This document shows, piece by piece, positions 9,453 to 42,323 of a stretch of 64,000 nucleotides of DNA. The notes under the pieces are model-generated. The model made no database searches and was not told the origin of the DNA. It saw only the letters and a list, made by a program, of their open reading frames with translations. The DNA is from a virus. Its lineage: Duplodnaviria; Heunggongvirae; Uroviricota; Caudoviricetes. Numbering within the stretch: position 1 is the stretch's first letter; the number at the start of each line of letters is the position of its first letter. The stretch is from positions 32,001-96,000 of IMG/VR virus record IMGVR_UViG_2718218168_000001. One strand, given 5' to 3'. A program made the position numbers and the translations under genes.

Positions 9453-10214
9453 TCACTCTCCTTTGATGCGAATGCCAGCGGCGCGTGGCACATTAACTTC
9501 CACGATGCGCACAGTTGGTTTGTACATCTCAATCGCTGTCAGCCAGTCAGCGCCGGTCATATGCTTTTCTGCATCGCCATTAGTCCATTGAACCGGCACA
9601 CCAATAGCTTTCATCGCAATTTCTATTTCCCCGGCAATGGCGCTTTTCCCGCAACCAGTAAAACCAGAGACAACGACAAGAACTTCGCCTTTGGCTGGTT
9701 TTATTTCCCGTGCTTCCAGTTCTGCAATGCGCTTCTCTGCGGCTTCCAGCTTCTCGCGCATATCGTCAACGTACTCGACCAGAGATCCGCCAGCAGGAAT
9801 TTCGCACTCCTCGACCAGTTGGAAGTAGATATCAGCTGCGGCCCGTGTGTTGCTATGCCTGGCGTCGCCTATCTCACCTTCGCGAAGAGCATCGCGTTCG
9901 GCGGTAAGATTGGCTATTTTGCTGTCTTTGCCTTCCAGCTCAACGCGCAGCCTCCCAACCGTAAGCGCAATATCCTCGTTCTCCTGGTCGCGGCGTTTGA
10001 TGTATTGCTGGTTTCTTTCCCGTTCATCCAACAATGCCAGCGCGATATCTGGCGAAAAGTGCTTCATAAAATCGTTAAGCGCATTAATTCGCTGATCGAA
10101 AGGCATTACAGGTGCTTCACCGGCAATTTTTGTTTTTTCAGCGATTTCACGAAGCTTTTGATAATCAATCTGGCTCACTGGTTGCCTCCTTTGCGGAGTT
10201 GCGCTTCGATGCAT
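9453..10214 (-). CDS. Ead/Ea22-like protein with coiled-coil and C-terminal P-loop-like motif; start uncertain
   Basis: 253 aa; central coiled coil; C-terminal VVVSGFTGCGKSAIAGE; the 40-nt overlap with the upstream ORF suggests a later start. Confidence 0.45.
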   Translation of the reverse strand: MHRSATPQRRQPVSQIDYQKLREIAEKTKIAGEAPVMPFDQRINALNDFMKHFSPDIALALLDERERNQQYIKRRDQENEDIALTVGRLRVELEGKDSKIANLTAERDALREGEIGDARHSNTRAAADIYFQLVEECEIPAGGSLVEYVDDMREKLEAAEKRIAELEAREIKPAKGEVLVVVSGFTGCGKSAIAGEIEIAMKAIGVPVQWTNGDAEKHMTGADWLTAIEMYKPTVRIVEVNVPRAAGIRIKGE

Positions 10215-32222: not shown

Positions 32223-33011
32223 ATGCTGGAAAAAGACTACCAGTTATCCGCATATAAAAAATTGGCCGCCGCCGGTGGGATGAAAACACCTGGTGCCATA
32301 ACATCGGCACGAAACTGTGCTAACACAGCAAAACTGCTTGCAGAAGAATTGACCGGATTAATTCTGGATACAATTGTCTATCCCGACACTATTACCTGCT
32401 ATGTTTCAACGATAAGAACAACCACAACCGGCTTAACGAACATTGGAGAACTGGCAACTAAGCACGCGGACCTGTTGGCTGGTTATGCAGATCTGTCAAT
32501 GCTGCTTCAACTCGATATTGGTTGGGATGTTTACTGCCGTGCTAATGAGCGAGAAGTTTCAGAACTGCCGATCTCTATTGCCATTGGTGATGTGAATATT
32601 ACTAAATCGCTTGAGGACGCTGTTAACGCGCTTAATACATCAAGTTTAGTCGCTGCTATGGGGGAGATTAACCAGACCCTTAACACTGGCTCAGTAAGCT
32701 CGTCAGGCTCTGGTTCAGGCGGCGGCACTGCCACTCCCCCACCAACACTAACAGAAGAGCAAATTGAATCTCTGAAAGTAGCAACTGAACAGTTTGGGGT
32801 TGTTTTCAACCAGACAACAGCGCCCACAACTGCGTTACAACAGCAGTATGAACGAGCGAATGAAAGCGCCAACGTAGCCATAACTGCTTATGGCCATGCT
32901 ATCGGTACCGCGCTTGCGGAAGCATCAGCAAATAAGGCCAGCACAGCCAGCGCAGTTGCTGCTTTGGTTCCTGATTCTGTTCTTGATGAATTAAACAAAG
33001 CGGCACAGTAA
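32223..33011 (+). CDS. Hypothetical Thr/Ser/Ala-rich protein
   Basis: 263 aa from MLEKDYQLS...; low-complexity SSSGSGSGGGTATPPPT linker. Confidence 0.45.
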   Translation: MLEKDYQLSAYKKLAAAGGMKTPGAITSARNCANTAKLLAEELTGLILDTIVYPDTITCYVSTIRTTTTGLTNIGELATKHADLLAGYADLSMLLQLDIGWDVYCRANEREVSELPISIAIGDVNITKSLEDAVNALNTSSLVAAMGEINQTLNTGSVSSSGSGSGGGTATPPPTLTEEQIESLKVATEQFGVVFNQTTAPTTALQQQYERANESANVAITAYGHAIGTALAEASANKASTASAVAALVPDSVLDELNKAAQ

Positions 33012-33050
33012 CAAAGGACTTCATTGATAATTTTTCTTCAGGAGGAAGAC

Positions 33051-33467
33051 ATGTCATTCTTTTCTACGTTAAAAACAGCTTTGTCTTTGAAGGAGAAACT
33101 TGCTGCTACTGGTGTTCTTGTTCTGATTTGCGCACTTGTTGGTGCTGGGTTTGCATGGGAACGTCATCAGCTAAAGCAAGCCATAGAGAAAATTGGCAGT
33201 CTTGATCAGGCTGTTAAGGAACGTGATAAGTCAATAATGGATCTTAACCAGACCATTGAGACGATGAACAAAGCAGAGCAACATTTTCACAGCCAGGAAG
33301 TGAAAAATGAATCAGAGCAAGCCAAGTATGCTGACAGGCAAATGGAACGAAAAGCTGAAGTTCAGAAACAACTGGTTGCGGCGGGTAATGTTCGCCAGCG
33401 CATTCCTGCTGACACTCAGCGGTTGCTCCGGGAGTCGATCAGCGAATTTAACGCCGACAAAGGTTAA
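33051..33467 (+). CDS. i-spanin (Rz-like)
   Basis: 139 aa from MSFFS... with strong SD (AGGAGG); one N-terminal TM helix then coiled coil. Confidence 0.6.
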   Translation: MSFFSTLKTALSLKEKLAATGVLVLICALVGAGFAWERHQLKQAIEKIGSLDQAVKERDKSIMDLNQTIETMNKAEQHFHSQEVKNESEQAKYADRQMERKAEVQKQLVAAGNVRQRIPADTQRLLRESISEFNADKG

Positions 33468-33633
33468 CCACCCTGCCCCCAAAAGTGCATTTATGTGCAG
33501 GATGCCGGAGTTTAGCAGTGAATATTTTGATGATCTGCCAGCGTATATCCTCGATACAGAAACGATGCTGATGGGGATTAACAGGAAGAATCGCAACGTT
33601 AATGATTACAACCGCGCTATCAGCGGTAACTAA
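33388..33633 (+). CDS. o-spanin (Rz1-like lipoprotein), overlapping the i-spanin in another frame
   Basis: MFASAFLLTLSGCSGS lipobox (LSGC); starts inside the Rz-like gene and extends past its stop. Confidence 0.55.
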   Translation: MFASAFLLTLSGCSGSRSANLTPTKVNHPAPKSAFMCRMPEFSSEYFDDLPAYILDTETMLMGINRKNRNVNDYNRAISGN

Positions 33634-33644
33634 AAGGGATTTTT

Positions 33645-34037
33645 ATGTCTGATAAAGTAACAGTTAAGCAAACTATCAACAAAGCGACTTCAATCTACAA
33701 AATTGAGCACATCACTGTTGGCAAGCCAGGATCTGAACAATACCGTCATGCTTTCGAGCTTGCCGCTCAGCTTGGTTTAAAACACCCGGATTGCATTGAG
33801 CATGTATTTCCGACCTATGCTGATGAGCAATGTACTCATGTTCTTACCGAAGAGGATTTTTTCAGCACTGAAGAACGAGAAGGCGTTGATCGCTGCATTG
33901 GTGTGATTTGCTCTTCAGTGAGTTATGAGTTATTCCCTAATGTCCATGAAAATGGTGGTATTGGATACCAATTCCTGTACGAAGGCGATGAGCTTAAATG
34001 TTATGAACATGGTCTTCTTATCGAAAGCGTAGAATAA
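33645..34037 (+). CDS. Hypothetical protein
   Basis: 130-aa ORF after the spanin pair. Confidence 0.45.
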   Translation: MSDKVTVKQTINKATSIYKIEHITVGKPGSEQYRHAFELAAQLGLKHPDCIEHVFPTYADEQCTHVLTEEDFFSTEEREGVDRCIGVICSSVSYELFPNVHENGGIGYQFLYEGDELKCYEHGLLIESVE

Positions 34038-34079
34038 TACCCTTCCTTCCAACCGGCTATGTTGGCCGGTTTATTCAAC

Positions 34080-34150
34080 TTATCCACAGCATAGATCCAA
34101 TAAACAGATCCCAAAGAGAACCTAGGAAGATCCAAAGAAGATCCCGGATC
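34080..34150. other. Plasmid origin elements: DnaA box plus five GATC sites
   Basis: TTATCCACA at 34080-34088; GATC at 34094, 34107, 34129, 34140, 34147; immediately upstream of the iteron array. Confidence 0.7.
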
Positions 34151-34191
34151 GCTGTAAGCCGCGCCGTTCATGGCCTGAAACGGGATCAACA

Positions 34192-34290
34192 TTGACTATA
34201 CGCGATTTTATGTTGACTGTGTGCGATTTTATGTTGACTGCACGCGATTTATTGTTGACTATACGCGACAGAAACGTTGACTGTACGCGA
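34192..34290 (+). repeat. Origin iterons: five direct repeats at about 21-bp spacing
   Basis: TTGACT(A/G)T(A/G)(C/T)GCGA at 34192, 34213, 34234, 34255, 34277. Confidence 0.8.
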
Positions 34291-34371
34291 TTTTAGAGCC
34301 TGAATATTCACAGCTGTTGATAACAGTCATCTAAATTAACGCCAGGCCGCGCCACACATGGAGAAACCACG

Positions 34372-35256
34372 ATGCCGGAAGAAAGTAAAGGCTTCCTTAG
34401 CGTTGAAGAAGTTGCAGGAAATACAGGAGAAATCCACAGCCTGAAGCCCAATAACAACAGCACTATACAACCTATCGCTTTGTTGCGCTTAGGTGTGTTT
34501 GTGCCAACCTTAAAATCTACCAATGTGGCACTACGTCGCGGATCGTCAGTTACTACAAACACAACGAACGCAACCGAAGAACTATCAAGCCTTAAAATTG
34601 TTGAGCAGGAAGGCTATGAGGGAATTGAAATTCATGGCCCACGCCTGGATATGGATACTGATTTTAAGGTGTGGGTGGGCATAACCTCCGCGTTGTTTGA
34701 CTACGCACCTGATGATGACGGCATAATCACCCTGCCATTCTCCGAGTTTGCCGATCGATGCGGCTATCCACGTAAGCGCCTTTCAAAGGCGTTCCGTAAA
34801 AGTATTGATGACTCTCTGACACGCATTCAGCAGACAGTTGTCAAATTCCGCTTCCCGGCGGCAAAAGGTCATCTCAATAACATTAACGTCAACTTGTTGG
34901 CATATAGCAGCCTGAATACCGAGCTTGATGTTATCGAGATCCAGCCGCAGAAACAGCTATCTGAACTTTACTATGTTGACTATAAGCGAATCCTGAAGCT
35001 GAAGATGCTGGATAAGCTCGGGCGCAAAGAGACGGCCAAGGTACTGTATACATTCTTTGAGGCTCTACCCGCCAACCCGGCACCTGTCAGCATTGAGCGC
35101 CTTAGAGCAAGGCTTAATCTCAAATCATCCGTTAGCGTGCAAAATAGCGTTATCAGAAAAGCCATGAAAGATTTGGAAGCTATTGAATATCTTAAATTTT
35201 CAGAAATAAAAAACGGCAGGAAAATCGGCTTCCAGATCCATAAGCGCAATCCATAA
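34372..35256 (+). CDS. repA: Iteron-binding replication initiator RepA; start uncertain
   Basis: 294-aa ORF flanked by iteron arrays in P1-type origin/control layout. Confidence 0.75.
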   Translation: MPEESKGFLSVEEVAGNTGEIHSLKPNNNSTIQPIALLRLGVFVPTLKSTNVALRRGSSVTTNTTNATEELSSLKIVEQEGYEGIEIHGPRLDMDTDFKVWVGITSALFDYAPDDDGIITLPFSEFADRCGYPRKRLSKAFRKSIDDSLTRIQQTVVKFRFPAAKGHLNNINVNLLAYSSLNTELDVIEIQPQKQLSELYYVDYKRILKLKMLDKLGRKETAKVLYTFFEALPANPAPVSIERLRARLNLKSSVSVQNSVIRKAMKDLEAIEYLKFSEIKNGRKIGFQIHKRNP

Positions 35257-35258
35257 TA

Positions 35259-35514
35259 TTGACTATATGCGATAGCGAGAAGTTGACTATAGGCGACATT
35301 CGTTGACGCTGGTGGATTTTTGCTGGCGTCAATATTCTGCAAGTCGCTATTGAGATGGCTTTTAGGGTCATTTCATCGCGTATAGTCAACGTTTCTCCCG
35401 ACAATATCTTACATAGTCGATCTTTGGTGGAGTTAAATCGACTACAGTCAACTTTTGACTGTAGTCACATCGCGCATAGTCAACTATTCACATTAACTTT
35501 CGCGCATAGTCAAC
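35259..35514. repeat. Downstream iteron array (incA-like copy-control locus), mixed orientation
   Basis: Forward iterons at 35259, 35283, degenerate 35303; reverse iterons (cgcgtatagtcaac type) at 35376, 35438, 35470, 35500. Confidence 0.7.
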
Positions 35515-35548
35515 ATTTGCGCGGTTCTCATCAAGCAGTGGTATTGAT

Positions 35549-36358
35549 ATGCAAGAAGAGAAACAACACTACCTCTACGTTCTGGTGCCGGAGAATGGAG
35601 ATACTTTTAAAATCGGCATTTCATGTGGTCCATTGGCACGGTTTAAAGGGCTACAAGTGAGTCCCGATTTTGCGCTTTCACGGGTCTATCGTGGTACGCG
35701 TTTGGCAATAGTTAATCTTGAGCGGGCTTTACACGCAACCTTTTTCCCCTGGAATGCGCCGTGGGAGAAAAGCGCTGGTGGCGGGCATACTGAATGGTTT
35801 ACACGAGAGTGTCTTGATAAGGTTTTGGCTCATATCGAATATCTAAATGATATGTGGGGAGGGATTCTCGAGCGCATTAAGTCGAATGATTTACTTCAGC
35901 GTCCAGTAGATGCTGCCCGCTCTTTCGAAAAAGAGCTGGATGTTACTTCTATCGTGACTTTCAAAGATGACGCAGGAATGAGGGACGTGGCTTATGTCTC
36001 CATATCTGGCTATGAACCGGACGCGATCCGCGCTCAATGTGAATTGCTGAAAGCAATGTTTATGCTTCGGACTAAATATTCCTGGGAGACAAGGCGGGTG
36101 TGCTTCCCTATGGAAGAGTTAACCGCCACCATTGATTCCCAGCTTTACCACGATAATCCAGAGAAGTTTTTTAGCCTTTTAGCCGGTAATGGGCTTAACT
36201 GTGTGTCCGGGCTGGGGCGAAGTAGAATCCAACATGCCTCGCTCTTCGGTCCCTTCTTTTACGATCGACACGGGTACTTTGAGGCTGAACTTCCGGCGCT
36301 TACGCGTGCTATAGATACTATCGATTTCGAACGATTATTCGCTGCTCTTAGCAAATAA
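35549..36358 (+). CDS. T5orf172-domain (GIY-YIG-superfamily-like) protein inserted between iterons and parA
   Basis: 269 aa; N-terminal YLYVLVPENGDTFKIGIS...LHATFFPW...GGGHTEWF; own terminator downstream. Confidence 0.5.
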   Translation: MQEEKQHYLYVLVPENGDTFKIGISCGPLARFKGLQVSPDFALSRVYRGTRLAIVNLERALHATFFPWNAPWEKSAGGGHTEWFTRECLDKVLAHIEYLNDMWGGILERIKSNDLLQRPVDAARSFEKELDVTSIVTFKDDAGMRDVAYVSISGYEPDAIRAQCELLKAMFMLRTKYSWETRRVCFPMEELTATIDSQLYHDNPEKFFSLLAGNGLNCVSGLGRSRIQHASLFGPFFYDRHGYFEAELPALTRAIDTIDFERLFAALSK

Positions 36359-36365
36359 CACTGAT

Positions 36366-36387
36366 GCCCCTGAACGGGGCTTTTTTG
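36366..36387 (+). terminator. Intrinsic terminator
   Basis: gcccc-tgaac-ggggc hairpin followed by TTTTTT. Confidence 0.7.
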
Positions 36388-36526
36388 TGCCCTCCTTGTA
36401 ACTCTCAATCGTGCAAAATGAACCAAACATGCAGAGAATGCTATGTACAAGCATCTGTGCATACATTATTATTTTATGCAGCATTTTTAATTAAATTCAA
36501 AAATACAGCATAAAGGATGGCTTTCG

Positions 36527-37723
36527 ATGAGTGATTCCAGCCAGCTTCACAAGGTTGCTCAAAGAGCAAACAGAATGCTCAATGTTCTGACTGAACAAGT
36601 ACAGTTGCAAAAGGATGAGCTACACGCGAACGAGTTTTACCAGGTCTATGCGAAAGCGGCACTGGCAAAATTGCCTCTACTGACTCGAGCGAACGTTGAC
36701 TATGCCGTGAGTGAAATGGAAGAAAAGGGTTATGTTTTCGATAAACGCCCTGCTGGCTCTTCAATGAAATATGCGATGTCAATTCAGAACATCATTGACA
36801 TATATGAACATCGCGGAGTGCCAAAATACCGGGATCGCTACAGCGAAGCGTATGTGATTTTCATCTCCAATCTTAAAGGCGGTGTGTCAAAAACTGTATC
36901 GACGGTTTCTCTGGCGCATGCAATGCGTGCTCACCCTCATCTTCTGATGGAAGATTTAAGGATTCTGGTTATTGACCTTGATCCGCAATCTTCAGCAACG
37001 ATGTTTTTAAGCCATAAACACTCTATTGGTATCGTAAACGCAACATCTGCACAGGCTATGTTGCAGAATGTAAGCCGTGAAGAGCTGTTAGAGGAGTTTA
37101 TTGTTCCTTCTGTTGTACTTGGGGTTGACGTTATGCCTGCGTCGATTGACGATGCCTTTATTGCATCCGATTGGAGAGAGCTGTGCAATGAGCATCTACC
37201 GGGTCAGAACATCCATGCTGTCCTGAAAGAAAATGTGATTGATAAGCTGAAGAGCGATTATGACTTTATCCTCGTTGATAGTGGTCCTCACCTTGACGCC
37301 TTCCTGAAAAATGCTTTGGCCTCGGCCAATATACTGTTTACACCTCTGCCGCCTGCAACGGTTGATTTCCACTCATCGCTTAAATACGTTGCCCGCCTTC
37401 CTGAGTTGGTGAAACTCATTTCGGATGAAGGCTGCGAGTGCCAGCTTGCGACTAACATTGGTTTTATGTCCAAGTTGAGTAACAAGGCAGACCATAAGTA
37501 TTGCCATAGCCTGGCTAAAGAAGTGTTCGGTGGGGATATGCTTGATGTCGTCCTCCCTCGCCTTGACGGTTTTGAACGCTGCGGCGAGTCTTTTGACACT
37601 GTTATTTCAGCTAACCCGGCAACGTATGTTGGTAGTGCTGATGCATTGAAGAACGCGCGAATTGCCGCGGAAGATTTTGCTAAAGCAGTTTTTGACCGTA
37701 TTGAATTTATCAGATCTAACTGA
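36527..37723 (+). CDS. parA: Partition ATPase ParA (type Ia, with N-terminal HTH domain)
   Basis: 398 aa; deviant Walker A KGGVSKT; upstream palindromic operator region. Confidence 0.9.
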   Translation: MSDSSQLHKVAQRANRMLNVLTEQVQLQKDELHANEFYQVYAKAALAKLPLLTRANVDYAVSEMEEKGYVFDKRPAGSSMKYAMSIQNIIDIYEHRGVPKYRDRYSEAYVIFISNLKGGVSKTVSTVSLAHAMRAHPHLLMEDLRILVIDLDPQSSATMFLSHKHSIGIVNATSAQAMLQNVSREELLEEFIVPSVVLGVDVMPASIDDAFIASDWRELCNEHLPGQNIHAVLKENVIDKLKSDYDFILVDSGPHLDAFLKNALASANILFTPLPPATVDFHSSLKYVARLPELVKLISDEGCECQLATNIGFMSKLSNKADHKYCHSLAKEVFGGDMLDVVLPRLDGFERCGESFDTVISANPATYVGSADALKNARIAAEDFAKAVFDRIEFIRSN

Positions 37724-37739
37724 GGAGTAAGAAACCCCC

Positions 37740-38741
37740 ATGTCAAAGAAAAACAGACCAACAATTGGGCGAACCCTTAATCCTTCAATATTAAGCGGAT
37801 TTGATAGTTCTTCAGCCTCTGGCGATCGAGTCGAGCAGGTATTCAAGTTATCAACTGGTCGCCAGGCCACATTTATTGAAGAGGTAATACCTCCGAACCA
37901 GGTAGAAAGCGATACCTTTGTTGATCAGCATAACAACGGGCGTGACCAGGCATCTCTTACGCCAAAATCATTAAAAAGTATCCGAAGCACTATTAAGCAT
38001 CAGCAATTTTACCCTGCAATAGGTGTTAGACGGGCTACAGGGAAAATTGAAATTTTGGATGGTTCCCGGCGTCGAGCTTCTGCCATCTTAGAGAACGTAG
38101 GGTTGCGGGTTTTAGTCACGGACCAGGAGATCAGCGTTCAGGAAGCGCAAAATTTAGCGAAAGACGTTCAGACAGCATTGCAGCACAGCATTCGAGAAAT
38201 AGGTCTGCGTTTGATGCGAATGAAAAATGATGGGATGAGTCAGAAGGATATTGCAGCCAAAGAAGGGCTGTCTCAGGCGAAGGTCACGCGTGCTCTCCAG
38301 GCAGCGAGTGCTCCGGAAGAATTAGTCGCCCTTTTCCCTGTGCAGTCGGAATTAACCTTTTCGGACTACAAAACGCTTTGTGCTGTTGGCGACGAAATGG
38401 GGAACAAGAATTTAGAGTTTGATCAGCTTATTCAAAACATATCCCCGGAAATAAACGACATCTTATCCATTGAAGAAATGGCCGAAGATGAAGTTAAAAA
38501 TAAAATCCTGCGCTTGATAACAAAGGAAGCCTCACTACTCACGGATAAAGGTTCTAAAGATAAGTCCGTAGTTACTGAATTATGGAAATTTGAGGACAAG
38601 GATCGCTTTGCAAGGAAGCGCGTGAAAGGCCGTGCATTTTCTTATGAGTTTAATCGACTTTCAAAAGAGCTACAGGAAGAACTCGACAGGATGATTGGGC
38701 ATATCCTTAGAAAGAGCCTCGATAAAAAGCCGAAGCCTTAA
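37740..38741 (+). CDS. parB: Partition protein ParB
   Basis: 333 aa; ParB/Spo0J-like region (ILDGSRRRASAI); followed by parS. Confidence 0.9.
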   Translation: MSKKNRPTIGRTLNPSILSGFDSSSASGDRVEQVFKLSTGRQATFIEEVIPPNQVESDTFVDQHNNGRDQASLTPKSLKSIRSTIKHQQFYPAIGVRRATGKIEILDGSRRRASAILENVGLRVLVTDQEISVQEAQNLAKDVQTALQHSIREIGLRLMRMKNDGMSQKDIAAKEGLSQAKVTRALQAASAPEELVALFPVQSELTFSDYKTLCAVGDEMGNKNLEFDQLIQNISPEINDILSIEEMAEDEVKNKILRLITKEASLLTDKGSKDKSVVTELWKFEDKDRFARKRVKGRAFSYEFNRLSKELQEELDRMIGHILRKSLDKKPKP

Positions 38742-38744
38742 ACT

Positions 38745-38830
38745 TTCGCCATTCAAATTTCACTATTAACCTACTGTTTTTAAAGTAAATCCATCTAAAA
38801 TTTCAAGGTGAAATCGCCACGATTTCACCT
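38745..38830. other. parS centromere (box A heptamers ATTTCAC and box B hexamers TCGCCA)
   Basis: TCGCCA (38745), ATTTCAC (38756), GTGAAAT-TCGCCA-cg-ATTTCAC (38807-38827) with an AT-rich spacer. Confidence 0.8.
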
Positions 38831-38894
38831 TGGATTTTACCTTCCGCCCCTACTCCCGAAAAAAATAAAAAAATTGCTTGTCACGAGAAAGTCA

Positions 38895-38915
38895 ACAAGT
38901 GACTTTCAATAAAAT
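38895..38915 (+). promoter_or_regulatory. Late-promoter-like element (ACAAGT-N9-TAAAAT)
   Basis: acaagt gactttcaa taaaat, upstream of the capsid-like gene. Confidence 0.5.
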
Positions 38916-38966
38916 CTCTTCCGAAAAGGGATTCACACAAGTGCCTTGTGTTTAAGGAAGAGTAAA

Positions 38967-40673
38967 TTGAGTAACTTACGCGAATACCAGAATCGTATTG
39001 CAGATATCGCAAAACGCTCTAAAGCTGTGCTTGGCTGGGCAAGCACTGCGCAGTTCGGTACTGATAACCAATTCATTAAAGATGATGCCGCGCGTGCCGC
39101 ATCTATCCTTGAAGCTGCACGTAAAGACCCGGTTTTTGCGGGTATCTCTGATAATGCCACCGCTCAAATCGCTACAGCGTGGGCAAGTGCACTGGCTGAC
39201 TACGCCGCAGCACATAAATCTATGCCGCGTCCGGAAATTCTGGCCTCCTGCCACCAGACGCTGGAAAACTGCCTGATTGAGTCCACCCGCAATAGCATGG
39301 ATGCCACTAATAAAGCGATGCTGGAATCCGTCGCAGCAGAGATGATGAGCGTTTCTGACGGTGTTATGCGTCTGCCTTTATTCCTCGCGATGATCCTGCC
39401 TGTTCAGTTGGGGGCAGCTACCGCTGATGCGTGTACCTTCATTCCGGTTACGCGTGACCAGTCCGACATCTATGAAGTCTTTAACGTGGCAGGTTCCTCT
39501 TTTGGTTCTTATGCTGCTGGTGATGTTCTGGACATGCAATCCGTCGGTGTGTACAGCCAGTTACGTCGCCGCTATGTGCTGGTGGCAAGCTCCGATGGCA
39601 CCAGCAAAACCGCAACCTTCAAGATGGAAGACTTCGAAGGCCAGAATGTACCAATCCGAAAAGGTCGCACTAACATCTACGTTAACCGTATTAAGTCTGT
39701 TGTTGATAACGGTTCCGGCAGCCTACTTCACTCGTTTACTAATGCTGCTGGTGAGCAAATCACTGTTACCTGCTCTCTGAACTACAACATTGGTCAGATT
39801 GCCCTGTCGTTCTCCAAAGCGCCGGATAAAGGCACTGAGATCGCAATTGAGACGGAAATCAATATTGAAGCCGCTCCTGAGCTGATCCCGCTGATCAACC
39901 ACGAAATGAAGAAATACACCCTGTTCCCAAGCCAGTTCGTTATCGCGGCTGAGCACACGGTACAGGCGGCGTATGAAGCACAGCGTGAATTTGGTCTGGA
40001 CCTGGGTTCCCTACAGTTCCGCACCCTGAAGGAATACCTGTCTCATGAACAGGATATGCTGCGTCTTCGCATCATGATCTGGCGTACTCTTGCGACCGAC
40101 ACCTTTGACATCGCTCTGCCGGTTAACCAGTCCTTTGATGTATGGGCAACCATCATTCGTGGCAAATTCCAGACTGTATATCGCGACATTATTGAGCGCG
40201 TTAAATCTTCTGGTGCGATGGGGATGTTTGCTGGTGCTGATGCAGCATCTTTCTTCAAACAGTTGCCGAAGGATTTCTTCCAGCCAGCCGAAGACTATAT
40301 CCAGACTCCGTATGTTCACTTCATCGGTACCCTGTTCGGTAACGTGAAAGTGTACGAAGTACCTGCTGGTATTTGTAAGAACTTAACGACAGAGAACATT
40401 CAGTTCAGCTCGATGGATGTGCTGTGCTACGTCCGTGATGAAAATCCGGGTAAAGCAGGCTTCGTGACTGGTGATGCTGTCCCGGCCATCCCGTTCCAGC
40501 ATCCGACCACTCCGGCGCTGGTCAACCGTACCACGCTGTGGGGTTCGGCTATCAACGATATGCACCCACGCAACGGCGCTGATTACTTCACTCGTGTAAC
40601 GCTGACAATGGCCAAAAAAGGCGGGCTTAACTTCATAAGCGGCGACACGATTGATGCCGGTGACTCTGAGTAA
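38967..40673 (+). CDS. Putative major head protein precursor (gene-23 position next to parB)
   Basis: About 568 aa from a TTG preceded by SD aaggaagag (ORF track starts at 38946); identity by position and size, followed by a stabilising hairpin. Confidence 0.5.
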   Translation: MSNLREYQNRIADIAKRSKAVLGWASTAQFGTDNQFIKDDAARAASILEAARKDPVFAGISDNATAQIATAWASALADYAAAHKSMPRPEILASCHQTLENCLIESTRNSMDATNKAMLESVAAEMMSVSDGVMRLPLFLAMILPVQLGAATADACTFIPVTRDQSDIYEVFNVAGSSFGSYAAGDVLDMQSVGVYSQLRRRYVLVASSDGTSKTATFKMEDFEGQNVPIRKGRTNIYVNRIKSVVDNGSGSLLHSFTNAAGEQITVTCSLNYNIGQIALSFSKAPDKGTEIAIETEINIEAAPELIPLINHEMKKYTLFPSQFVIAAEHTVQAAYEAQREFGLDLGSLQFRTLKEYLSHEQDMLRLRIMIWRTLATDTFDIALPVNQSFDVWATIIRGKFQTVYRDIIERVKSSGAMGMFAGADAASFFKQLPKDFFQPAEDYIQTPYVHFIGTLFGNVKVYEVPAGICKNLTTENIQFSSMDVLCYVRDENPGKAGFVTGDAVPAIPFQHPTTPALVNRTTLWGSAINDMHPRNGADYFTRVTLTMAKKGGLNFISGDTIDAGDSE

Positions 40674-40733
40674 TCAGGGGAAGTTCTCCGTTTAACATAG
40701 CGCCCCCGTGCGGGGCGCATAACAGGGAAAGTT

Positions 40734-42323
40734 ATGTCTCAATATTCAATTCAACAGTCATTAGGTAATGCATCCGGCGTCGCGGTTAGCCCGATCAATG
40801 CCGATGCGACGTTATCTACCGGTGTTGCATTAAATAGCAGCTTGTGGGCTGGTATTGGCGTATTTGCGCGTGGCAAGCCGTTTACTGTTCTTGCGGTTAC
40901 TGAGTCCAATTACGAAGATGTTCTCGGCGAACCGCTGAAGCCGTCTTCCGGCCCACAGTTCGAACCAATTCGCCATGTATACGAAGCTATTCAGCAAACG
41001 TCTGGTTATGTTGTTCGCGCTGTTCCGGATGATGCGAAGTTCCCGATTATTATGTTCGATGAATCAGGCGAACCGGCTTACAGTGCGTTGCCATACGGTT
41101 CTGAAATTGAACTTGATAGTGGCGAAGCCTTTGCTATCTACGTTGATGATGGTGATCCGTGTATTTCACCTACCCGTGAGTTAACCATCGAAACGGCAAC
41201 AGCGGACAGCGCGGGTAATGAACGCTTCCTCTTAAAACTGACCCAGACGACTTCGCTCGGTGTGGTAACGACCCTGGAGACACACACTGTGTCTTTGGCG
41301 GAAGAAGCGAAAGATGACATGGGCCGCTTGTGTTATCTGCCTACGGCTCTGGAAGCCCGTTCTAAATATCTGCGCGCGGTTGTTAATGAAGAGCTGATTT
41401 CGACGGCGAAAGTAACAAACAAAAAATCGTTGGCGTTCACTGGCGGTACCAACGGCGATCAGTCGAAAATCTCCACCGAAGCCTACCTGCGTGCGGTTAA
41501 GGTGCTGAACAATGCGCCGTACATGTACACCGCTGTTCTCGGCCTGGGTTGCTATGACAATGCGGCGATCACCGCGTTAGGTAATATCTGTTCTGATCGC
41601 CTGATTGATGGCTTCTTTGATGTCAAACCGACATTGACGTACACGGAAGCGATCTCTGCTGTTGAAGATACCGGTTTACTTGGTACCGATTATGTAAGCT
41701 GTGCTGTCTATCACTTCCCGTTCTCCTGCAAAGACAAATGGACCCAATCCCGTGTTGTCTTCGGTCTGTCTGGCGCGGCGTATGCGGCGAAAGCTCGTGG
41801 CGTTAAGAAAAACTCCGATGTCGGCGGTTGGCATTACTCACCGGCTGGTGAAGAACGTGCCGTCATTGCTCGTGCATCACTTCAGCCGCTGTATCCTGAA
41901 GACACCCCGGACGAAGAAGCTATGGTCAAGGGCCGACTCAATAAAGTATCTGTAGGTACTTCGGGCCAGATGATCATCGATGATGCTTTAACTTGCTGCA
42001 CGCAGGATAACTATCTGCACTTCCAGCACGTCCCATCCCTGATGAATGCAATCAGCCGTTTCTTTGTCCAGTTAGCCCGACAGATGAAGCATAGCCCGGA
42101 CGGTATTACTGCGGTTGGCCTGACTAAAGGGATGACCAAACTTTTAGATCGCTTTGTCGCCTCCGGCGCTCTGGTGGCTCCTCGTGATCCTGATGCTGAC
42201 GGTACAGAACCGTATGTGCTGAAAGTTACGCAGGCGGAATTCGATAAATGGGAAGTAGTCTGGGCCTGCTGCCCGACTGGCGTAGCCCGTCGTATCCAGG
42301 GCGTACCGCTGCTTATTAAGTAA
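40734..42323 (+). CDS. Putative tail sheath protein (by position and size)
   Basis: 529-aa ORF after the capsid-like gene; no diagnostic motif checked. Confidence 0.4.
   Translation: MSQYSIQQSLGNASGVAVSPINADATLSTGVALNSSLWAGIGVFARGKPFTVLAVTESNYEDVLGEPLKPSSGPQFEPIRHVYEAIQQTSGYVVRAVPDDAKFPIIMFDESGEPAYSALPYGSEIELDSGEAFAIYVDDGDPCISPTRELTIETATADSAGNERFLLKLTQTTSLGVVTTLETHTVSLAEEAKDDMGRLCYLPTALEARSKYLRAVVNEELISTAKVTNKKSLAFTGGTNGDQSKISTEAYLRAVKVLNNAPYMYTAVLGLGCYDNAAITALGNICSDRLIDGFFDVKPTLTYTEAISAVEDTGLLGTDYVSCAVYHFPFSCKDKWTQSRVVFGLSGAAYAAKARGVKKNSDVGGWHYSPAGEERAVIARASLQPLYPEDTPDEEAMVKGRLNKVSVGTSGQMIIDDALTCCTQDNYLHFQHVPSLMNAISRFFVQLARQMKHSPDGITAVGLTKGMTKLLDRFVASGALVAPRDPDADGTEPYVLKVTQAEFDKWEVVWACCPTGVARRIQGVPLLIK

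Follow-up and report, generated by a model that had tools for sequence, protein, structure and literature searches.

A T5orf172-type nuclease gene at the edge of an exchangeable replicon cassette in P1-like phage-plasmids: a candidate selfish endonuclease

The window, by which we mean the whole 64-kb stretch of DNA analysed here, represents a P1-like phage-plasmid. At 34166-36424 on the + strand it carries an exchangeable replicon cassette of the p0111/RCS47 type, made up of origin iterons, repA, control iterons, a T5orf172 gene and a terminator. The origin and repA-promoter array consists of five direct iterons upstream of repA (34190-34290, + strand; core TTGACTATACGCGA) at a spacing of 21-22 bp, a layout like that of P1 incC. 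It is followed by repA (34372-35256, + strand), which encodes a 294-aa initiator of the Rep3 family with 42% identity to P1 RepA; in Pfam, this protein scores 27.3 bits with Rep3_C and 22.0 bits, just below the cut-off, with Rep3_N. Downstream of repA, an incA-like array (35257-35518) comprises two direct iteron copies (at 35259 and 35283) and then four inverted ones (at 35376, 35438, 35470 and 35500), and this direct-then-inverted order is common to P1 incA. The last iteron occupies 35500-35518, and the ATG of the nuclease gene follows 30 nt further on. To the right of the cassette, the first conserved feature is Ppar (36444-36472, + strand; -35 TGTACA, -10 TATTAT), which was located by a promoter scan and matches the annotated position of Ppar in P1. 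Next in the flank, outside the cassette, comes parA (36527-37723, + strand), whose product is 99.5% identical to P1 ParA, while ParB is 100% identical to its P1 counterpart. The replicon of the window does not qualify as canonical P1 IncY, which is defined by a P1-type RepA and 19-bp GATGTGTGCTGGAGGGAAA iterons; no such 19-bp iterons were found in the window at up to 3 mismatches. It is the type known in the literature as p0111. PLSDB (MOB-suite) types the replicon of CP057476.1, p0111 by its literature name, as IncHI1B.

The nuclease gene itself (35549-36358, + strand) is an intact ORF with an ATG start and a 269-aa product in which the motifs YLYVLV, KIGIS and GGGHTEWF are present. It sits where the first-pass annotation had placed it, between the end of the downstream iterons at 35518 and the beginning of the parA promoter at 36444. 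That annotation had also read a T5orf172-type N-terminal domain from these motifs, and this was borne out by a profile search: aa 8-85 match profile positions 2-87 of 101 of PF10544 (T5orf172) with 26.8 bits and an E-value of 7.6e-6, exceeding the curated gathering cut-off of 20 bits. Further Pfam matches, to MUG113 and Tox-URI2, were below threshold. PHROG 2876, a family of unknown function, covers the full length of the protein (E 8e-193), and phrog_681, labelled 'endonuclease', matches its nuclease end (E 1e-9). The protein is 100% identical to a protein of phage RCS47, and E. coli plasmid pRHB25-C13_2 matches the DNA at 99.9% identity. Public labels for it are 'GIY-YIG nuclease family protein', 'T5orf172 domain-containing protein', 'hypothetical protein' and, once, 'terminase small subunit'. 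The last of these labels is found in phage phi456 (OR339795.1, 39982-40788). The gene has its own intrinsic terminator, as had been proposed: a GCCCC-TGAAC-GGGGC hairpin with a T-run at 36366-36389 (+ strand), 8 nt past the stop codon. A promoter scan of the + strand from repA to the nuclease ATG gave no convincing sigma-70-like site, and no terminator was found between repA and the nuclease gene. The GC content of the gene (0.474) is about that of the window (0.473), so that composition gives no sign of a foreign origin.

Among PLSDB records, 391 contain the contiguous stretch from repA through the nuclease gene to Ppar at no less than 95% identity. The p0111-type RepA at no less than 60% identity occurs in about 398 records, and the nuclease at no less than 90% identity in 400. 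The gene is essentially always present within the p0111-type replicon: no gene-less allele of this type was found in PLSDB, and hence no empty homing site came to light there. Uniform presence in relatives, which the first-pass annotation had held to speak against an insertion, is therefore what we see within the replicon type (about 391 of 398 PLSDB records).

Beyond this type, only three further full-length homologues were found among 5.8 billion clustered proteins and 1.8 billion representatives, with about 160 other proteins having the N-terminal domain alone in common. All three full-length homologues occupy the same slot in other diverged P1-like elements. The first, L003 (Logan run ERR2144811), has a RepA 84% identical to that of the window and a nuclease 44% identical. 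The second, L048/L049, comes from a Salmonella assembly and is IncY-like, with a RepA 83% identical to P1 RepA and a nuclease 28-31% identical to those of the window and L003; this gene-bearing IncY-like lineage is rare, being represented by two contigs. The third, L050, from a faecal metagenome, has a RepA 41-48% identical to all others and a nuclease 38% identical to that of L048; iterons of the L050 type do not occur in the window. Thus, the four lineages represent three RepA/iteron types, each with a direct-then-inverted array, and in all four the nuclease gene lies between the last inverted iteron and Ppar with its ATG 19-35 nt past that iteron. The gene call of the L003 homologue (P0004) starts 41 codons early (10001-10123), with iterons translated as repeated 'AYSQH'; the conserved L003 ATG aligns with the start codon in the window. 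L003 also shares with the window an iteron-like site inside repA (TTGACTATAAGCGA, 1 mismatch; 34976-34989 in the window and 9613-9626, the same place, in the diverged L003), which may be an extra RepA-binding or autoregulatory site.

In the wider family defined by the N-terminal domain, none of the three available contexts of remote relatives was linked to rep: one lies in a replication module of a phage, another in an island with integrase and resolvase, and the third is a tandem pair on a megaplasmid of Cupriavidus. The Cupriavidus pair (NZ_CP017750.1; 4953-6750 of our locus L057) consists of tandem 'GIY-YIG nuclease family protein' genes of 320 and 276 aa in a region rich in transposases; over 104 aa, the first has an N-terminal domain 34% identical to the window protein.

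The window protein has an N-terminal T5orf172/GIY-YIG-like nuclease domain (aa 1-105; 35549-35863, + strand), a low-confidence linker (aa 106-125; 35864-35923, + strand), for which the full-length model drops to pLDDT values under 50 over aa 117-125, and a C-terminal domain (aa about 126-269 plus the stop codon; 35924-36358, + strand) predicted to be a winged helix and nearest to the WH1 of iteron initiators. The N-terminal domain is predicted to take up the alpha/beta fold of GIY-YIG nucleases and has the core residues of T5orf172: the Tyr of strand 1, the K-I-G of strand 2, the Arg of helix 1 and the Glu of E-W-F. Seven positions, Y10, K21, G23, R31, E82, W83 and F84, are invariant in the four full-length homologues and 23 diverse remote relatives, and these include the catalytic pair R31 and E82. 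The spacing of Y10-K21-R31-E82 parallels that of Y6-Y17-R27-E75, which we take to be the corresponding residues of I-TevI.

Folded alone, the C-terminal domain gives a compact model (pLDDT 76.5, pTM 0.72) with a helix-helix-helix-hairpin winged-helix core. Foldseek searches with this model returned 6h24_A first (E 5e-3, probability 0.99), followed by RctB and then about 20 RepE54 entries, all with weak scores; sequence searches of Pfam, NCBIfam and the PDB with the domain gave no match. Judging from the model, the domain is likely a winged-helix DNA-binding domain, and its resemblance to Rep-WH1 is a lead. Mimicry of RepA at the level of sequence was considered and rejected, as the domain aligned to five RepA proteins only with blastp E-values above 0.2 and an hhalign probability of 0.2%. 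RepA_N was not matched in Pfam scans of the protein, the predicted fold being nearer to the Rep3-type WH1. The window and L003 have the same iterons and RepA proteins that are 84% identical, yet their C-terminal domains are only 31% identical, which argues against simple iteron recognition.

Comparison with P1 (NC_005856) places the gene at the boundary of an exchanged block. The first-pass annotation was right that the P1 iterons run straight into the parA promoter: the last incA iteron and Ppar are only about 190 bp apart, and the annotation shows no gene in this interval. However, the notion of a discrete insertion into a P1-type replicon did not hold, since iterons, repA, iterons and gene have been replaced together (34166-36424). 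Homology between the window and P1 ends at 34165, about 25 bp ahead of the first iteron, and restarts at 36425, which is 67 bp past the nuclease stop codon and just before the -35 element of Ppar; between these points lie 2259 bp in the window versus 1500 bp in P1. Together with the 42% identity of the two RepA proteins, this break indicates that the whole replicon was replaced as one cassette, of which the nuclease gene is the last element. A second pair displays the same arrangement. The backbones of L003 and L048 are 96-99% identical in DNA, as are the flanks of the window/P1 pair, but the two are entirely different from the first iteron to 84 bp past the nuclease stop, with a p0111-like cassette in L003 (8831-11019) and an IncY-like cassette in L048 (6656-8944). 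Two pairs swapped at matching edges indicate that the cassette was exchanged in two separate backbone lineages, with edges that agree within about 25 bp. The gene thus lies at a boundary of recombination, as free-standing homing endonuclease genes do: the cassette breakpoint falls 67 bp past its stop codon in the comparison of the window with P1 and 84 bp past it in that of L003 with L048. The left flank of the window (31182-34165, upfB to upfA) is 94.9% identical to P1, with UpfB 88.6% identical at the protein level, and the right flank (36425-41030; par and genes 23 and 22) is 99.3% identical, a difference that points to unequal histories of the two flanks.

Within the IncY type, the gene is present or absent at a fixed locus, as is characteristic of homing genes. 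The alignment of P1 with L048 runs through repA and the incA iterons, after which P1 is without the 1-kb gene segment and has in its place 171 bp of unrelated sequence (NC_005856, locus L001, 4327-4497). This spacer has no counterpart in the other cassettes. A nuclease remnant within it was sought and rejected, as tblastn with the four homologues gave a best E-value of 0.2 and global alignment only scattered short matches; upfA was likewise dismissed as the occupant of the P1 slot, the P1 annotation placing it upstream of oriR. In PLSDB, 143 records show the P1 junction without the gene. The IncY repA and incA also occur next to a par operon of the P7 type, which encodes a ParA of 401 aa and a ParB of 321 aa, and the two parts meet precisely at the last incA iteron (NZ_CP149289.1, L054, 1145-1261; NZ_CP086409.1, L055, 3927-4043), indicating that replicon and partition modules also recombine independently of each other. 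From one backbone to another, the divergence of the two cassette types is about the same as that of the backbones. This fits nuclease-driven spread no better than a long-standing balanced polymorphism in replicon type that persists independently of the nuclease, and the latter is equally possible.

To describe selection within the replicon type we used 43 close copies from IMG/VR. The pN/pS of the nuclease gene was 0.31 (0.28 for the N-terminal and 0.33 for the C-terminal domain), compared with 0.02 for repA, 0.002 for parA and 0.055 for parB; the value of 0.31 indicates that purifying selection still acts on both nuclease domains. Premature stops occur in 7 of the 43 copies (16%): S112* (TCG to TAG), which falls in the linker, in five different genomes (L009, L010, L012, L013 and L015), W68* in L041, and Q228* in L038, which is SJ46. 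Protein clusters of shortened products have 151 members (111 aa) and 229 members (168 aa), compared to 1241 full-length members. Between the window and L003 synonymous sites are saturated, and dN was used instead. It amounts to 0.52 for the whole nuclease gene, with 0.27 in the N-terminal and 0.74 in the C-terminal domain, against 0.13 for repA, 0.07 for parA and 0.13 for gp23. By this sequence record, the nuclease gene is dispensable and fast-evolving, most so in its putative DNA-binding domain. It does not behave as a maintenance factor, because P1 does without the gene and nonsense alleles circulate. The initial suggestion of a selfish or cargo gene thus holds in part, namely for its dispensable-type behaviour (pN/pS 0.31, stops in 7 of 43 copies, presence in L048 and absence from P1).

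We propose, with a probability of roughly 45%, that the gene encodes a selfish or conflict-related site-specific endonuclease of the homing type, with a build like that of Odn (ICP1 gp88), that moves together with the replicon cassette and has no part in maintenance. The product would be a two-domain T5orf172 endonuclease of the GIY-YIG superfamily, in which a flexible linker joins the catalytic domain at the N-terminus to a winged-helix DNA-binding domain at the C-terminus. Its gene is a resident passenger at the right edge of the cassette, and P1-like phage-plasmids swap the cassette whole, through recombination in the conserved sequence on either side. Its role would probably lie in inter-element conflict, the gene being needed for neither replication nor partition. 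In a co-resident P1-like element with another cassette or without the gene, the protein would bind DNA at the iteron array or close to it and cleave in the vicinity. Such cleavage would either eliminate the rival or, upon repair from the nuclease-carrying copy, spread the gene and its linked replicon, so that the gene could act as a homing gene dragging the cassette along or as a weapon against partition-incompatible rivals. We infer nuclease activity, winged-helix DNA binding, the target and homing alike; the features that fit T5orf172 homing-type endonucleases by analogy are the intact catalytic core, the fast-evolving DNA-binding-like domain, the edge position, presence/absence and decay.

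A narrower version, in which an iteron-anchored homing endonuclease drives replicon swapping (IncY to p0111 and others) and escape from incompatibility, appears doubtful. Here, the Rep-WH1-like domain would recognise the terminal control iteron in P1-like plasmids with iterons of the matching type. The GIY-YIG domain tethered to it would cleave a few tens of bp further downstream, where the gene itself is inserted, in an allele that lacks the gene. Through repair from the nuclease-carrying element, the gene would be copied in, and co-conversion would bring the whole replicon cassette along. Binding to the terminal iteron and cutting just beyond it would explain the constant distance of 19-35 nt and the separation of the homologues between iteron types.

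Alternatively, the gene might be defence cargo directed against phages or plasmids, a nuclease that senses and cuts invading DNA to the benefit of both host and prophage, with the variable C-terminal domain as its sensor. T5orf172/Mug113 nuclease domains are found in some defence proteins, the match to phrog_681 'endonuclease' agrees with such a role, the fast divergence of the C-terminal domain (dN 0.74) is what an arms race would be expected to produce, and accessory genes are common on phage-plasmids. We nevertheless consider it unlikely. The defence association raised by the first-pass annotation found no echo in model searches, with 0 families of PADLOC-DB v2 matching at an E-value of 1 or below and no match to the NCBIfam models, and the gene stands singly, with no partner. 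Moreover, its homologues group partly by replicon type rather than by backbone, L003 and L048 sharing a backbone while their proteins are only 28% identical, and its fixed spot inside the cassette in three replicon types lies outside the known variable regions of P1-like elements (PMC9603915).

Closeness to the iterons could instead reflect domestication: the Rep-like winged helix would bind the adjacent iterons or pair with RepA, and the nuclease fold, no longer cutting, would serve a regulator that tunes copy number, handcuffing or par-operon expression, for which CapR of PLE is comparable. The position of the gene next to the last iteron in all four lineages is consistent with this, as is the predicted WH1-like fold, WH1 being the dimerisation and DNA-binding domain of Rep initiators. 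With no terminator found between repA and the gene, read-through from a RepA-controlled promoter is possible, and the T5orf172 repressor CapR provides a precedent for domestication (cited in PMC10448857). However, conservation of the catalytic Arg and Glu is strict, the gene is absent from P1, whose replication and partition are normal, 16% of sampled copies carry nonsense alleles at a pN/pS of 0.31, and the C-terminal domains of the window and L003 are only 31% identical despite the same iterons and RepA proteins 84% identical; a domesticated regulator is therefore quite improbable. The same nonsense alleles, in 7 of 43 copies, together with the shortened-product clusters with hundreds of members and a pN/pS above that of the neighbouring genes, would be consistent with a decaying relic, that is, an old selfish nuclease gene fixed in the cassette, now functionless and kept by linkage to repA alone. 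This we regard as the least probable account, since the majority of copies are intact, a pN/pS of 0.31 amounts to purifying selection in both domains, and the ORF and its catalytic residues survive divergence to 28-44% identity in four lineages.

The existence of the gene and its family label are already known from databases and its co-replacement with repA has been mentioned in passing. The earlier description did not assign it to a family or analyse its structure, distribution and evolution. Four points appear to be new with respect to the searchable literature: the conservation of the slot in three iteron types, the location of the gene at the boundary of the cassette, the evolutionary signature of a selfish gene and the prediction of an initiator-like second domain. 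Resistance genes are widely carried by P1-like phage-plasmids, whose main replicon types are two, IncY and p0111. A nuclease gene at the cassette edge in three iteron types, with a DNA-binding domain that looks like that of an initiator, offers a concrete, testable mechanism by which these elements would replace their replicons, and one that also covers competition between partition-incompatible elements. If the proposed conflict endonuclease is real, the principle of Odn, a nuclease aimed at a replication origin, would be extended from phage-satellite to plasmid-plasmid conflict; if the gene is inert, the finding amounts only to a better annotation of a common hypothetical gene.

Several known systems resemble the proposed endonuclease in part. 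Like I-TevI and the Seg proteins of phage T4, the window protein begins with a GIY-YIG domain of about 100 aa, from which a linker leads to a putative DNA-binding domain at the C-terminus, with its Arg and Glu presumably spaced similarly to the catalytic pair of I-TevI, and like theirs its gene is free-standing between conserved genes. It differs in belonging to the T5orf172 subfamily, with KIG in place of YIG, in having another DNA-binding domain and in the absence of an intron. Closer in family are the T5orf172 homing-endonuclease genes of ICP1 and other phages, which sit at the boundaries of genetic exchange (Barth, Dunham and Seed 2023, PMC10448857). These share with the window gene the nuclease family and the combination of the nuclease with a separate DNA-binding domain, and they too adjoin essential genes at the edge of an exchanged block and are often inactivated in some isolates. 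Unlike them, the window gene lies in the maintenance region of a phage-plasmid, beside iterons, and its second domain is neither of the zinc-finger kind (CapR, DUF723, DUF4397) nor RepA_N.

The setting is that of the P1 IncY and p0111 replicons (PMC9603915), with five origin iterons, a Rep3-type repA, a direct-plus-inverted control array and the same flanks, the left part of oriR on one side and Ppar-parAB on the other; in canonical IncY, unlike in the window, no gene lies between incA and Ppar. The nearest functional parallel is Odn, in which a T5orf172 domain and an initiator-like DNA-binding domain are combined in a nuclease that cleaves the origin of a satellite at its iterons and exerts selection for swapped replicons (Barth et al. 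2021, PMC8263062). The window protein likewise pairs a T5orf172 domain with a domain resembling an initiator, and in both cases swapping of replicon modules is tied to a nuclease. However, the domain of Odn is a RepA_N with detectable sequence similarity to the RepA of its target, whereas the likeness of the window protein to Rep3-WH1 is structural only and weak. The order of the domains is also reversed: the catalytic E180 suggests that the nuclease domain of Odn lies towards the C-terminus (PMC8263062), while that of the window protein is N-terminal. Finally, Odn comes from a lytic phage, whose attack is directed at a satellite, whereas the window gene lies in cis, beside the replicon of its own element.
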